Program-made: the position numbers and the translations under genes
Source: Escherichia phage phiD2-2
DNA length: 49,337 nt
Reading direction: 5' to 3' (one strand)
Sequence record: OR861627.1
Part shown: positions 43,933 through 49,337 of the stretch, piece after piece
How the letters are laid out: every line of letters begins with the position of its first letter
How positions within the stretch are numbered: position 1 is the stretch's first letter
The notes under the pieces: model-generated
What the model saw: only the letters and a program-made list of their open reading frames with translations
What the model was told of the DNA's origin: nothing
Database searches by the model: none

Positions 43933-45945
43933 ATGAACATTAAAAAGCAGATTGCATTACTTGGCGAGGACTATATAAAGCGAACTCAGGAGCGATTCAC
44001 TGTCGGTGAGGTTGTTCCTTATCCGTACCAGGTTGTTGCTTATGCTGAGATCGCGAAACGCCTATCAAATTACGAGCATCCATTCTTTGTTAAAGCGTCA
44101 GTATCTGCTGGTAAGACCATCATTTTTGCTATGGTTGCAAAGCAGTGTCAGAAAATGGGCTTAAAAATGCTCGTTCTGGCTCGCCAGGGTGAGATTGTCG
44201 ATCAGGATAGCGAGGAGATTGACAACTTTGGGGTAACTAACTCCATATTCTCAGCCTCATTAGGTATTAAGTCCTGCTATTTTCCTATCGTGGTAGGCTC
44301 AGAGGGTACTGTTGCAAATGGCCTCGACAATGAGCTTGCTGATTTCGTCCCGCATGTAATTGGGATCGACGAATGTCACCAGGTGGATTGGGAAGACCTT
44401 GCGCAAGCCATTGAGGGCAAGGAAACAATGGAACAAATGAGGGGCGAGAAGGGAAAAATCATCATGGATGGAGATATTCCCCTGATTGGTAATGATGGAA
44501 AACCTTTGCTTGGGACTAAGCGCAGTCAGTACACAATCGTAATCATGGAAATGATGCGGCGCTGTAAAAAGGTTCACGGTCACGATCTCAGAATATTTGG
44601 TATGACTGGATCTGAATTTCGTGGCGTAGTTCCTATTCTGGTAGAGAATCCGAAAGCATTGGGATTCTGGCGTGAGCGAGTAACTGATATCGACACAAAC
44701 TATCTGATTGAGTTCGGTTCTGTTGTGCCGACAATATTCGGTTCAACAGACGGAGTTCATTACGATCTGGATAAGTTCAAGGCGTCGAGCGAGGACGGAG
44801 TGCAGGACTTTACAGAGAAAGACATGAAGGCTATGGAAGATGAGATCCTTCATGATAAATCTCTTACTCAGCGAATCATGCAAATGGTTGCCAAAAAGGC
44901 TGAAGAGCGTAACGCGGTACTGATTACATGTGCTGGTGTGCGCCACTGCAAAGAGGCAGCGGCAGCACTTCCTCCGGGAAGCACCTATGCAATTATTACT
45001 GGCGACACAGACAACAAAACGCGCAAGAAGATTCTGGACGATGTAAGGGCCGGAAAAATTAAATACACCTTTCAGGTAATGGCGCTCACTACTGGTGTTA
45101 ACGTTCCAAATTGGGATTTCAGTGTCATACTCCGCAAAATAGGGTCGCTCACACTGTTGATTCAACTTTTGGGTAGGGGTATGCGTCTGCTTAAATCCTG
45201 GCAGGTTGCTGAGGGAATGGTTAAGCAGGACCATCTGGTATGGGATTTCGCAGGTACGATGGATGAGTTGGGCCAGCTTTATTTCGATCCGATACTTGAG
45301 CAGGCGCAATTCCAAAAGCGTTTTGAAAACGGCAAAGATCCGAAAACATGTCCGAAATGCGGTTGCGTAAATAGCTTCTATGCTCGACGATGCGTTAATG
45401 TCATTGATGGTGAACGTTGTGATCATTTCTGGACTTCTCAGGTTTGTGAGGACCAGGTTGACGAGCGCACCGGAAAAATCCTTGTTAAAGGATGCGGCGC
45501 AGAGAATGACGTTGTGGCCAGAGTCTGTCGTTGCTGTGATGTTTCGCTTGTCGATCCTAACCTGAAGTTATCCGGTAAGGCGTACACTAAGAATGACTGG
45601 TATGAAGTAAAGAATTTTGAGGTTACGCTAACCAAAAACCAGAAAGGCATAATATACAAATACACTCTTATTAACGATGATGGTGATGAGTTCAAGGCGT
45701 ATGAAAAATTCTTCCCCGAGTCTGACTCTAAGATTTGCGGTACGCTATGGAAAACTAAAGGTGTATTGCCACACGTATCGGATCCTAAAATGCGCCGATA
45801 CTTTATCGGAATGAAGAACGCCATCAAGATTTTGCAATACTCACATCATATTGCTCACCCGGTGCGCGTAACTCATCGTCGCAACCAGAAGAAAGAAGAT
45901 ATTATCTCACGAAAAGACTTTGGTATGGAGGATATCCCGGAATGA
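43933..45945 (+). CDS. ATP-dependent helicase (SF2, DExH-type)
   Basis: Walker A SVSAGKTIIF, DECH box, C-terminal Cys cluster; track start 43927 is an upstream GTG. Confidence 0.8.
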   Translation: MNIKKQIALLGEDYIKRTQERFTVGEVVPYPYQVVAYAEIAKRLSNYEHPFFVKASVSAGKTIIFAMVAKQCQKMGLKMLVLARQGEIVDQDSEEIDNFGVTNSIFSASLGIKSCYFPIVVGSEGTVANGLDNELADFVPHVIGIDECHQVDWEDLAQAIEGKETMEQMRGEKGKIIMDGDIPLIGNDGKPLLGTKRSQYTIVIMEMMRRCKKVHGHDLRIFGMTGSEFRGVVPILVENPKALGFWRERVTDIDTNYLIEFGSVVPTIFGSTDGVHYDLDKFKASSEDGVQDFTEKDMKAMEDEILHDKSLTQRIMQMVAKKAEERNAVLITCAGVRHCKEAAAALPPGSTYAIITGDTDNKTRKKILDDVRAGKIKYTFQVMALTTGVNVPNWDFSVILRKIGSLTLLIQLLGRGMRLLKSWQVAEGMVKQDHLVWDFAGTMDELGQLYFDPILEQAQFQKRFENGKDPKTCPKCGCVNSFYARRCVNVIDGERCDHFWTSQVCEDQVDERTGKILVKGCGAENDVVARVCRCCDVSLVDPNLKLSGKAYTKNDWYEVKNFEVTLTKNQKGIIYKYTLINDDGDEFKAYEKFFPESDSKICGTLWKTKGVLPHVSDPKMRRYFIGMKNAIKILQYSHHIAHPVRVTHRRNQKKEDIISRKDFGMEDIPE

Positions 45946-46358
45946 TTACAGACAAAGGTGATTATTTAGAATTTTACGAGAGAGATCCAAGCGACACTCG
46001 AAAGGAGGACGCTCATCAGGTGGATTGTGTATCCTGGCTGAAATACAATTTTCCTCACCTTCTATTTTGGCACACTGTCAATGAAGGTGAAAAAACAATC
46101 ACATCGGCGCTCAGGGATGAGCAGGCCGGATTACTTAAAGGCGTGTCAGACTTCGTTATCCTGATTGGTGTTAACTCACGATACCCGTTTGCAGCAATCG
46201 AACTTAAGCGGGTTAATAAGTCAGGCAAAGGAAAGGCGTCACCAGTCAGCGACAAGCAAAGGGAATTTCTCCAAAAGGTCCGGGAGCGTGGCGGCTTCTC
46301 TGCCGTCGCATACGGATTCGGGCAATTCAAGATCGCAATTTACGAAATGATGAAATAG
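45942..46358 (+). CDS. VRR-NUC domain nuclease
   Basis: GVSDFVIL...AAIELKR...SDKQREFL spacing fits the VRR-NUC core; overlaps helicase stop. Confidence 0.6.
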   Translation: MITDKGDYLEFYERDPSDTRKEDAHQVDCVSWLKYNFPHLLFWHTVNEGEKTITSALRDEQAGLLKGVSDFVILIGVNSRYPFAAIELKRVNKSGKGKASPVSDKQREFLQKVRERGGFSAVAYGFGQFKIAIYEMMK

Positions 46359-46425
46359 CACTTTTTGTTAAAACTGCCGGGATGGAATCTGGCATTATTA
46401 TCTCACCAAAACGAGAGGAATAAAA
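46355..46425 (+). promoter_or_regulatory. gene-boundary cassette upstream of Dam
   Basis: ATAGCACTTTTTGTTAAAAC with the VRR-NUC TAG inside, hairpin, ATTATT, CACCAAAACGAGAGGAAT. Confidence 0.55.
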
Positions 46426-47139
46426 ATGAAAGACTTTAATGATATCGAAACTATCGACTTTGCAGAAACTGGTTGCTCATTCACTCGCGAAGCAATAGCA
46501 TCAGGCGGTTATTATCAGGCATTGAAAACGCCAACCTGCAAAGAGATTTCAGGGCGTCGATACAAGGGGACAAATACCCCTGACGCTGTTCGTGATTTAT
46601 GGTCAACCCCGCGCGAGGTTATCGCATACCTTGAGGGTCGTTACGGAAAATATGATCTAGACGCTGCGGCAAGCGAAGAAAATAAAGTTTGCGAGAAGTT
46701 TTATTCCCAGGAAACAAACTGCTTAAAACGTTGGTGGGGTAAAAATAAGCACGTATGGTTAAATCCTCCTTATAGTCGACCTGATATATTCGTCAAGAAG
46801 GCGATCGAGCAAATGGAGCACAACAATCAGATTGATATTCTGTTGCCTGCCGATAATTCCACAGCGTGGTTTACTGAGGCGAGACAGAACGCGGCTGAGA
46901 TTATCTGGATTGAAGCTGACTTGACTGAAGATATCGACGGTAACGAGTACGCCAGATCTGGTCGCCTGGCTTTCATATCCGGTGAAACTGGAAAGGCGGT
47001 TGACGGCAATAACAAGGGTTCGGTAATTTTCATAATGCGCGAACTTAAAGAGGGTGAGACACAGCAAACTCACTATATCCCAATCACAAGCATTTGCCCT
47101 TCGGTGAAAAACAAGCGCGCAAAAGTGAGGAAAGTATGA
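46426..47139 (+). CDS. dam: DNA N6-adenine methyltransferase (phage Dam family)
   Basis: WSTP, DLDAAAS and NPPYS motifs; own boundary cassette upstream. Confidence 0.75.
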   Translation: MKDFNDIETIDFAETGCSFTREAIASGGYYQALKTPTCKEISGRRYKGTNTPDAVRDLWSTPREVIAYLEGRYGKYDLDAAASEENKVCEKFYSQETNCLKRWWGKNKHVWLNPPYSRPDIFVKKAIEQMEHNNQIDILLPADNSTAWFTEARQNAAEIIWIEADLTEDIDGNEYARSGRLAFISGETGKAVDGNNKGSVIFIMRELKEGETQQTHYIPITSICPSVKNKRAKVRKV

Positions 47140-47387
47140 TGAACGAGAAAATGATTCCGGTTAAGTTAACTGATCAAGGTTTATGGCTGCTTTATCGAGC
47201 TACCTGCTGCGAAATCATGGAACAAAACGGATTGACGCAGGATGTTATTGGTTGCGATCTGTGGGAGTTCACTAGCTCTCTTGATATGTCTTTCGATGAG
47301 ATAAAAAATGAATACATAGAGAATTGGCCTTCAATCATACAGAGAGACGTAGAGGAACTTAAAGCTGATATGATCGTTCAGCACTAA
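47136..47387 (+). CDS. hypothetical protein (about 83 aa)
   Basis: Track ORF 47094..47387 trimmed to MMNEKM with GAGGAAA RBS. Confidence 0.5.
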   Translation: MMNEKMIPVKLTDQGLWLLYRATCCEIMEQNGLTQDVIGCDLWEFTSSLDMSFDEIKNEYIENWPSIIQRDVEELKADMIVQH

Positions 47388-47453
47388 TTGCTAAAACTAC
47401 CCGGCGAAAGTCGGGTATAGTTATTTCATCGAGACGAAATGAGGAATCAAAAG
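47379..47453 (+). promoter_or_regulatory. gene-boundary cassette
   Basis: CAGCACTAATTGCTAAAAC with TAA stop inside, hairpin CCCGGCgaaaGTCGGG, TATAGT, CATCGAGACGAAATGAGGAAT. Confidence 0.55.
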
Positions 47454-47663
47454 ATGGCACGCATTAACGCAAACTTTTTCAATATCGCTCAACAGTCCGC
47501 AAAAATGGCTGTTCATATCACTGACAAGAAAGGCGGCAACTTTGATTGGGATATTGCTATGAACTTCCTTAAAATGGCTTATTACCTCTGCTCAGTCAAA
47601 GATGTTGAGTGTTTTATTGAAAGCGTGGAGAAACCAACCAATGCTGATAAAAAAACAAGGTAA
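47454..47663 (+). CDS. hypothetical protein (about 69 aa)
   Basis: Track ORF 47439..47663 trimmed to MARINAN with GAGGAA RBS. Confidence 0.5.
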   Translation: MARINANFFNIAQQSAKMAVHITDKKGGNFDWDIAMNFLKMAYYLCSVKDVECFIESVEKPTNADKKTR

Positions 47664-47913
47664 ACGAGAGGTTTGGGATCACGCGAAGGAGTGCGGAATC
47701 TCAGACGATATAGCACTAATAGCAAAATATTTCGATATAAAGGATGTTAGCATCATCTCAAACGGAAAGATTTCATTTATGGAAGATATGCCGAGAAAAA
47801 TGCATAGAGTGCCAGCCACCCCATCACTTGAATTTTATCGTGAAGAAGGAAAGAGAATTGAGCGAGAACGAAAAACAGCAAAGAACAACAAGTCTTCCAG
47901 GCTTAAACATTAA
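47641..47913 (+). CDS. hypothetical protein (about 90 aa); start uncertain
   Basis: Track ORF 47602..47913 trimmed to the ATG after GGAG; overlaps previous gene. Confidence 0.35.
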   Translation: MLIKKQGKREVWDHAKECGISDDIALIAKYFDIKDVSIISNGKISFMEDMPRKMHRVPATPSLEFYREEGKRIERERKTAKNNKSSRLKH

Positions 47914-48145
47914 CGCAGAAGATTATCAGACTATCTGGATCGGAAAAAAGCAGGTTAAGAAAATCCCTTTCTCTGATTGGTTGCCTCCTGACTTCGTTAA
48001 TGTGCTTTGCACCATCGGTATGGAACAGGAGTTGCATATAGGTTATTACTCACCAGGTAGAAACAGCATAATGCTTGAGGTTGATGGGAAACTTGTTGAG
48101 TTTAAATCTTCAGATCTCGGATTCTGGTTAAAGGCTGTGGCATGA
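47744..48145 (+). CDS. hypothetical protein in the +1 frame, overlapping 47641-47913; start unresolved
   Basis: Track ORF; protein-like downstream half (DYQTIWIGKK...GFWLKAVA) but no good RBS at the listed ATG. Confidence 0.3.
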   Translation: MLASSQTERFHLWKICREKCIECQPPHHLNFIVKKERELSENEKQQRTTSLPGLNINAEDYQTIWIGKKQVKKIPFSDWLPPDFVNVLCTIGMEQELHIGYYSPGRNSIMLEVDGKLVEFKSSDLGFWLKAVA

Positions 48146-48223
48146 ATCTTTATTTTGCTGTAGTATTAACACCGCTAATTTCATTTTTAGTAATGTATTT
48201 CATTATCATGTAAGGATTAAAAT

Positions 48224-49337
48224 ATGTCACAAGCTAAAATCACTACCGAACAACTTGTCGAAGAGCGCATGAACGGCCTAACACTTCGCGAGATCGCGGA
48301 AAAGTACGGTATGCACATTCGAACTGTTGAAGCTCGCCACGCAAAGTTGGCAAAAGAAGGTCACTTCCACGGTAACGAGCATGTTGCTAAGAACGTACCG
48401 GAAGGATTCATGGTAAAAGGCACATCAACGATGATTCGCGGCGATGGGACCGAGGTGGTGCGCTGGGTTAAGACCGATCAGGACCGTGAGAAGATTGCAG
48501 CAATGATGGAAGCGGCGCGTATTGCATTCTGTGAAGATCTGCCGCGAGCAAAGCCAACTGAGCTACTAACCTCACAAGGGCTTACTACAGCGATGGGTAA
48601 GCTGGCACTCTATCCGGTATTCGATCTTCATATTGGCGCGCTTGCTCATAAGCATGAATGCGGAGAGAACTATTCTACCGATGTAGCGGAAAAAGTGCTG
48701 AGTGACTTCTTTAATTACGCGATCGATATTGCTCCGAACGCAGAGAAGGCTGTTCTGTTAATCGGCGGTGACTTCCTGCACTCTGACGGACTTGATGCAG
48801 TTACTCCGGCAAGCGGTCACGTTCTTGATCAGGATTCACGATATGCTAAATTGGTGCATGTAGCGATTCGATCGGTGCGACGAGCTATAGACAAAATGCT
48901 GACGAAACACAAAGAGGTCGAAGTTCAGGTTATCGAAGGAAACCACGACCAGGCCGGGATGATTTGGTTACGCGCAGCAATGGCAGCATACTATGAAGAC
49001 GAGCCGCGAGTATTCGTTGACGTCAGTCCTATGATTCTGCATAAGACTCGTTGGGGAAATACCTTGTTGGGATACACTCACGGGCACACTATGAAAAAGG
49101 CAGACACGCGACTTGCAGCGATGGCAGCAGATTTCCGATCGGATTTCGGCGAGAGCAAGTATGTGTATACTCATAGCGGGCACTGGCATCACCAGACAAT
49201 CACTGAGCACTCGCTAGGTATTGATGAAGTACACGGTCAGTTAGGCGCGAAAGATGCATACGCAGCACGCGGAGGGTGGCGCTCATATCGCCAGGCGGCG
49301 GTAATTGTTTACGATAAGCAGTTTGGTGAAATCGGTC
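48224..49337 (+). CDS. HTH-containing calcineurin-like metallophosphoesterase (SbcD/Mre11-like?), 3'-truncated by window edge
   Basis: AAGGA RBS; N-terminal HTH-like LTLREIAEKYGMHIRTVEARHAKL; phosphoesterase motifs FDLHIG, GGDFLH, GNHD, YTHGH, SGHWHH; frame open to window end. Confidence 0.6.
   Translation, partial: MSQAKITTEQLVEERMNGLTLREIAEKYGMHIRTVEARHAKLAKEGHFHGNEHVAKNVPEGFMVKGTSTMIRGDGTEVVRWVKTDQDREKIAAMMEAARIAFCEDLPRAKPTELLTSQGLTTAMGKLALYPVFDLHIGALAHKHECGENYSTDVAEKVLSDFFNYAIDIAPNAEKAVLLIGGDFLHSDGLDAVTPASGHVLDQDSRYAKLVHVAIRSVRRAIDKMLTKHKEVEVQVIEGNHDQAGMIWLRAAMAAYYEDEPRVFVDVSPMILHKTRWGNTLLGYTHGHTMKKADTRLAAMAADFRSDFGESKYVYTHSGHWHHQTITEHSLGIDEVHGQLGAKDAYAARGGWRSYRQAAVIVYDKQFGEIG

Follow-up and report, generated by a model that had tools for sequence, protein, structure and literature searches.

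A 56-nt out-of-phase overlap between two small genes of a T1-like coliphage and its probable origin from an ATGA junction

Near the right end of the window (the whole 49,337-nt stretch of Escherichia phage phiD2-2 DNA analyzed here, record OR861627.1), two small genes on the plus strand, ORF1 and ORF2, share 56 nt that are read in different frames. We consider it likely, at a probability of roughly 0.85, that these are separate, independently initiated genes in a derived arrangement: ORF1 would be translated from ATG 47641 and ORF2 from TTG 47858, by way of an AAGGA Shine-Dalgarno (SD) site at 47846–47850 within the 3′ end of ORF1. Frame-specific selection, conservation of the TTG and its SD, and intermediate states of the junction in other lineages are all seen in the sequences compared here. 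The locus reflects neither a sequencing error nor, most probably, recoding; it holds two ordinary small genes that are probably translated separately.

The original prediction described two open reading frames on the same strand, 47602–47913 and 47744–48145, offset by +1 and sharing approximately 170 nt, and the ORF list confirms this, with lengths of 103 and 133 aa. The 170-nt figure is correct for the mechanically called frames; the genes themselves share the 56 nt from 47858 to 47913.

Results

The gene pair lies in an early operon of a T1-like phage

The region 47400–48250 matched 60 T1-like phages by megablast. The best match was Escherichia phage FCWL1 (Tunavirus, Drexlerviridae) at 99.9% identity, and the rest were at approximately 94% or less. 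Over 45900–49337 the window and FCWL1 differ at a single position, 47945 (A in the window, G in FCWL1), where residue 30 of ORF2 is lysine in the window and most relatives and glutamate in FCWL1. The source genome is a T1-like coliphage (Tunavirus) nearly identical to FCWL1, with a length of 49,337 bp compared with 49,336 bp. An SbcD-like exonuclease ORF (48224–49337) leaves the right end of the window and, when the ends are joined, finishes at position 38, which makes the window a complete phage genome in circularly permuted form.

The genes on this strand are ordered helicase, VRR-NUC, Dam methylase, small ORFs, and SbcD-like exonuclease. ORF1 and ORF2 belong to this early/DNA-metabolism operon, between the Dam methylase and the SbcD-like exonuclease. 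A terminator-like, GC-rich hairpin (47398–47417; 8 bp with a GAAA loop) followed by a T-rich tract separates the small-gene cluster from the gene that ends at 47387 and may mark a transcript boundary or an attenuation point. Inside ORF1, a promoter scan detected no promoter-like site able to drive ORF2 separately.

The gene upstream of ORF1 (47454–47663, plus strand) is a small homologue of phage T1 orf18 (phrog_2180, E = 2e-23); it is present in the ORF list, is annotated in T1, IME18, and Shfl1, and has an SD duplex of −6.3 kcal/mol. It overlaps ORF1 by 23 nt (47641–47663), a segment that contains an A7 run at 47649–47655. The corresponding junction in Rogunavirus e4/1c is a 4-nt overlap, so that overlaps have lengthened at two successive junctions of the Tunavirus operon.

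ORF1 and ORF2 belong to conserved Drexlerviridae families

Both products are conserved Drexlerviridae proteins of uncharacterized families. ORF1 (47641–47913, plus strand) encodes a small protein of 90 aa, identified by profile, tblastn, and codon-position pattern. Its start is ATG 47641, homologues begin MLI or MIV, and the start is preceded by a GGAG SD (47627–47630, plus strand) whose duplex with the 16S rRNA tail has an energy of −6.4 kcal/mol; a ribosome-binding site is annotated at the equivalent position in T1. ORF1 is a member of phrog_2817 (E = 3.5e-32), with residues 3–75 aligned to profile positions 2–75 of 84 and the C-terminal 15 residues outside the profile. By tblastn it was found in 845 phage records, with conservation over residues 1 to approximately 64. 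The last six to seven codons (about 47893–47913) are a lineage-specific extension that reads over the conserved N terminus of ORF2. In Pfam, ORF1 gave just a sub-threshold match to DUF7334. The fairly confident AlphaFold2 model of ORF1 (pLDDT 83) predicts a beta-alpha-alpha-beta-beta domain and a long, basic C-terminal helix.

ORF2 (47858–48145, plus strand) encodes a 95-aa homologue of phage T1 orf17 with a TTG start, identified by profile, conservation of the TTG and SD, and codon-position pattern. It is a member of phrog_4596 (E = 2.9e-36; residues 12–94 on profile positions 2–84 of 85), was found in 144 records by tblastn, and had no match in Pfam. The 95-aa form is called in 14 of 15 database protein clusters. 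ORF2 is modeled with fair confidence by AlphaFold2 as a compact, seven-stranded, all-beta domain (pLDDT 80), and its sequence contains invariant W and P residues (IPFSDWLPPD). Foldseek searches with the two models gave no match in the PDB at E ≤ 0.001 and only uncharacterized phage homologues in BFVD.

Selection switches from the ORF1 frame to the ORF2 frame inside the overlap

The alignment comprised the window, FCWL1, and 12 Tunavirus genomes from IMG/VR (T1 included) over 47430–48230. All 14 sequences are distinct, and they are collinear with zero gaps in any of them. Variable columns were sorted by codon position and by whether the change is silent in each frame.

From 47641 to 47857 there are 35 variable columns, 30 of which occupy the third codon position of ORF1 (binomial p = 2e-10); 28 are silent in ORF1 and one is silent in the ORF2 frame. 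Between 47858 and 47892, 13 of the 35 columns vary, at all codon positions, five of them silently in ORF1 and none silently in ORF2. All four variable columns in 47893–47913 are at ORF2 position 3, equivalent to ORF1 position 1 (p = 0.012). The same ORF2 position accounts for 40 of 59 variable columns over 47914–48145, and for 44 of 63 when the two segments are taken together (47893–48145, p = 4e-9). This pattern indicates that selection passes from ORF1 to ORF2 at about 47885–47893, upstream of the ORF1 stop; in the 14 Tunavirus sequences, purifying selection acts on each frame beyond the overlap, and the switch lies inside it.

Since ORF2 appears to start at TTG 47858, inside the end of ORF1, the true out-of-phase overlap is 56 nt long (47858–47913, plus strand, ORF2 in the +1 frame), as is also consistent with the codon patterns and with the annotation of CPTT1_062/063 in T1. 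Genuine overprinting, one of the possibilities raised by the original prediction, is thus real and conserved over these 56 nt, though not over 170 nt.

TTG 47858 is the probable start of ORF2

Four start codons occur in the ORF2 frame between the upstream stop and 47893: ATG 47744, TTG 47828, GTG 47840, and TTG 47858. Only TTG 47858 has an SD, AAGGA (GAGGG in some relatives; 47846–47850, plus strand), which ends 7 nt before the start and has a duplex energy of −5.7 kcal/mol, compared with −5.9 to −7.8 kcal/mol for neighboring genes. The duplex energies for the other three are +0.3 to +0.7 kcal/mol, and all candidates in the frame other than TTG 47858 are at −2.2 kcal/mol or above. The TTG and its SD are present in 14 of 14 Tunavirus sequences and are also kept in the more distant lineages L023 and L024; GTG 47840 is GCG in four of the 14. 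Judging from these features of the sequence, ribosomes probably initiate at TTG 47858. The RNA from 47820 to 47990 is less structured than its shuffles (z = +2.03; none of the 200 shuffles folds less stably), a property that favors initiation and speaks against a stimulator of frameshifting.

It had been noted originally that the second frame lacks an acceptable start after the first one stops. This is accurate insofar as no conserved start exists there, and it overlooked TTG 47858 inside ORF1. The downstream candidates TTG 47981, GTG at about 48000, and ATG 48020 were rejected because the ORF2 frame is under selection already from 47893 and is coding by 47893–47913; no SD precedes any of them (duplex energies are approximately 0 for TTG 47981 and ATG 48020), and ATG 48020 is ATT in Shfl1 and T1.

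Some observations temper the assignment. TTG is a weaker start codon, and the ribosome-binding site of ORF2 is crossed by ribosomes translating ORF1, which counts against independent initiation at this position; translation of ORF1 through the site may modulate ORF2 output. Conservation of the TTG and SD is partly explained by the conserved ORF1 residues REEGKRIE. T47859, the third position of an Ile codon, is the only TTG/SD base left free by ORF1, and that it does not vary among 14 close relatives is not significant by itself. The titles and abstracts listed by literature searches showed nothing specific to this gene pair and pointed to no expression data for it.

Residues 1–11 of ORF2 are a lineage-specific extension; the ancestral N terminus (M-N-LPGL) corresponds to 47888 onward. 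The extension has no conserved sequence (MSENEKQQRTT, LSENGEQLKTA, and LNSSAKSNNEA in different sequences), and residues 1–8 are predicted to be disordered (pLDDT < 50 in the AlphaFold2 model). This lack of protein-level constraint leaves room for a variant in which a non-canonical codon nearer to 47888 may serve as the ORF2 start. Initiation at TTG 47858 remains our preferred reading.

Other lineages carry ATGA and intermediate junctions

Every genus examined carries ORF1 and ORF2 as separate genes. They meet at a 4-nt ATGA junction in HazelMika (Vilniusvirus), e4/1c (Rogunavirus), ESCO41 (Nouzillyvirus), and Phc (Eclunavirus), with ...AAG AAA TGA closing ORF1 (...KK and stop) and ATG AAT CTn CCA GG... 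opening ORF2 (MNLPGL...). ACG-M12 has a 2-nt gap instead of the ATGA overlap. The relation between the two frames is −1 in the other genera and +1 in the window.

Intermediate arrangements were found in more distant relatives of the window. Two metagenomic lineages, L022 and L025, have an ORF2 that is 52%–57% identical to that of the window and an extended ORF1 (ending SRLKR) in the same +1 relation. Their ORF2 starts at a plain ATG with an SD (MQKLPGLN and MLNLPGLN), giving a 29-nt overlap, and in L025 the ORF2 frame opens just four codons before this ATG. In L023 (54%) and L024 (46% protein identity), a TTG with an SD occupies the exact position seen in the window and gives a 56-nt overlap. 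The ORF2 frame of L024 is interrupted by a TGA six codons ahead of the TTG, with no canonical start other than the TTG preceding LPGL. A downstream gene with its own start and SD inside the upstream gene is therefore conserved, as TTG in Tunavirus and L023/L024 and as ATG in L022/L025. The states in L022–L025 imply that ORF2 is initiated independently inside ORF1 and that the TTG has been kept while the surrounding sequence diverged.

The ATGA stop/start feature is absent from the window: the codons aligned to the ancestral M-N are ACA-AGT (47888–47893), so that the ancestral ATG reads ACA at 47888–47890, and the ORF1 stop lies 21 nt further on. The ORF1 tail of the window, ...YREEGKRIERERKTAKNNK, is homologous to that of e4/1c, which ends ...YREEGKKIFKKGAKK before its stop; measured to the CCAGG motif, the tail of the window has 7 nt more by manual count. 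This net gain of 7 nt puts the old TGA out of frame, and ORF1 reads on to TAA 47911–47913; the LPGLN codons of ORF2 are read as SSRLKH in the ORF1 frame.

Taken on the sequences compared, the ATGA junction is the ancestral state and the Tunavirus arrangement is derived. The proposed history would begin with a 4-nt ATGA overlap, which several other Drexlerviridae genera have kept. A change of length in the basic tail of ORF1 (net +7 nt relative to e4/1c) would have shifted the frame in the Tunavirus lineage and displaced the TGA, and ORF1 would then have extended across the LPGLN codons of ORF2 to TAA 47911–47913. The ATG of ORF2 would have been lost (now ACA at 47888), and initiation would have shifted 10 codons upstream to the TTG.

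Alternative explanations

A more ambitious interpretation takes one of two forms. Either the progression from the 4-nt ATGA overlap through the 29-nt to the 56-nt overlap with a buried TTG is a regulatory device, in which ribosomes on ORF1 block or unfold the ribosome-binding site of ORF2 and thereby fix the ORF1:ORF2 ratio, or low-level +1 shifting makes an ORF1-ORF2 fusion. On both forms the two proteins would be partners in an early phage function, ORF1 being a small DNA-binding-like protein. We regard this interpretation as unlikely.

Termination-reinitiation is quite unlikely. Ribosomes ending ORF1 at TAA 47911–47913 would restart at the non-canonical ATT 47909–47911 (within ATTAA) or move back to the TTG. 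The idea has in its favor that the ancestral junction is of the classic coupled ATGA type, that the ORF2-frame ATT overlapping the TAA is invariant in the 14 relatives, and that reinitiation by back-scanning across tens of nucleotides is established for RNA phages. However, a start at ATT 47909 would drop the S-LPGLN motif, which is invariant in Tunavirus and forms the conserved N terminus in all genera, and the region encoding it (47893–47908) evolves by silent changes in the ORF2 frame. The ATT is also not conserved in L022–L025. Backward movement to the TTG would be a version of the preferred explanation, initiation at TTG 47858, and no true rival to it.

Programmed +1 frameshifting near 47893–47902 (for example, at UCC-AGG 47896–47901, the only plausible +1 site), instead of or besides independent initiation, would fuse ORF1 and ORF2 into a protein of approximately 170 aa. 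The +1 offset of the two frames and the loss of the ancestral ORF2 ATG in the Tunavirus lineage are compatible with such an event, as is the rare Arg codon AGG at 47899–47901 in the ORF1 frame, where selection switches. The site itself is not conserved, however: AGG 47899 is CGG in three and TGG in one of the 14 sequences, and the neighboring codons vary too. No stimulatory element was seen in the RNA from 47820 to 47990, which is less stable than its shuffles, and an Rfam scan of 47300–48400 gave one chance-level match (sR28, 15 bits against a gathering score of 39). L022 and L025 share the frame relation and nevertheless use a normal ORF2 ATG, with the frame in L025 closed just upstream; other genera keep separate genes in the −1 relation, and independent starts are present in all lineages. 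No proteins of fusion length were found among 110 + 151 homologous clusters, and no natural ORF1-ORF2 fusions among 32 family representatives found in 1.84 billion representative proteins. For a 132-aa "ORF1" in Sfin-2, the loss of a single base from an A-run of that record provides the explanation. The recoding raised as one possibility by the original prediction is not supported in view of the separate TTG and SD, the plain ATG in two sister lineages, the variation of AGG in four of 14 sequences, the positive folding z score (+2.0), and the lack of fusion homologues, and we consider it very improbable.

It is just as improbable that the long form of ORF2 is real, with a start at ATG 47744, 133 aa, and true dual coding over 170 nt; this form would yield peptides from MLASSQTERFHLWK... 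It is annotated in FCWL1 (gp58) and LeonhardEuler (bas13_0037), it has an ATG start, and no stop interrupts the frame from 47744 onward in any of the 14 Tunavirus sequences, with a similarly long open frame in HazelMika. Against it, the 15 variable columns in 47744–47857 (13 at ORF1 codon position 3 and two at position 2) include none that is silent in the ORF2 frame and 11 that are silent in ORF1. There is no usable SD, as the AAGG abuts ATG 47744 (duplex +0.3 kcal/mol); stop codons interrupt the frame in L024, L025, e4/1c, ACG-M12, ESCO41, and Phc; and no homologous family covers the segment. This part of the ORF2 frame (47744–47857, plus strand) is open but non-coding, and the apparent 170-nt overlap results from mechanical ORF calling across these 114 nt. 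A stop-free run of 38 codons is not unusual here, where the genome has many nested alternative-frame ORFs of 80–130 aa. The view that both frames are protein-like fails, by evolutionary criteria, for 47744–47857.

A sequencing or assembly indel that split one gene into two frames deserves practically no weight: A-rich runs do occur at 47870–47875 and 47944–47949 and the related Sfin-2 and Sfin-6 records carry 1-nt deletions in such runs, but the comparison of orthologous regions revealed no indel, with identical frames and no gap across 14 independently sequenced genomes, those of the window, FCWL1, and T1 among them, and the +1 relation is shared with lineages 46%–57% identical at the protein level, the genes being separate in all genera examined.

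In the records of Sfin-2 (L027) and Sfin-6 (L028), one A is missing from the A-run equivalent to 47944–47949 (approximately 47947), and Sfin-2 lacks an additional base near the equivalent of 47880. With these bases missing, ORF2 is broken and "ORF1" reaches 132 aa; the probable cause is homopolymer sequencing error in the two records, and not in the window.

Discussion

The arrangement is already annotated in the GenBank record of phage T1, and the value of the analysis lies mainly in annotation quality. Public annotations of the locus disagree. The closest record, FCWL1 (PP558327), omits the widely conserved ORF1 and begins ORF2 at the upstream ATG (133 aa), unlike the T1 record; the FCWL1 start gives ORF2 a spurious N terminus of 38 residues. 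RefSeq IME18 has ORF1 and a 41-aa ORF2 stub, and Shfl1 has ORF2 from the TTG and omits ORF1. Among the FCWL1, IME18, Shfl1, and T1 records, only the re-annotated T1 has both genes with the 56-nt overlap.

The series from a 4-nt ATGA through a 29-nt ATG to a 56-nt TTG overlap illustrates how an overlap can grow by stop-codon loss and start-codon migration. The ORF1/ORF2 junction is a small illustrative example of this process and involves no new mechanism.

Comparison with known systems

The window resembles programmed frameshift sites, such as the +1 site of prfB and the −1 site of the phage tail-chaperone G/GT genes, in having overlapping frames on the same strand and a downstream frame without a start after the upstream stop. 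It differs from them in having an independent SD and start, no conserved shift site or stimulatory element, and no fusion homologues.

The ATGA-coupled pairs of e4/1c, ESCO41, Phc, and HazelMika consist of the same two families in the same order and operon as in the window, and both types of pair are probably co-translated from one mRNA. Unlike those pairs, the window has lost the ATG and the in-frame TGA, has a +1 rather than a −1 relation, and has a 56-nt overlap with a TTG start; tight stop/start coupling is therefore no longer possible.

The closest known counterpart is in phage T1 (AY216660), where CPTT1_062 and CPTT1_063 (orf17) are orthologues at approximately 87%–94% identity that differ only by point substitutions. 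As in the window, the two T1 genes overlap by 56 nt, a start at the TTG position is annotated together with a ribosome-binding site, orf18 lies upstream, and an SbcD-like exonuclease lies downstream.
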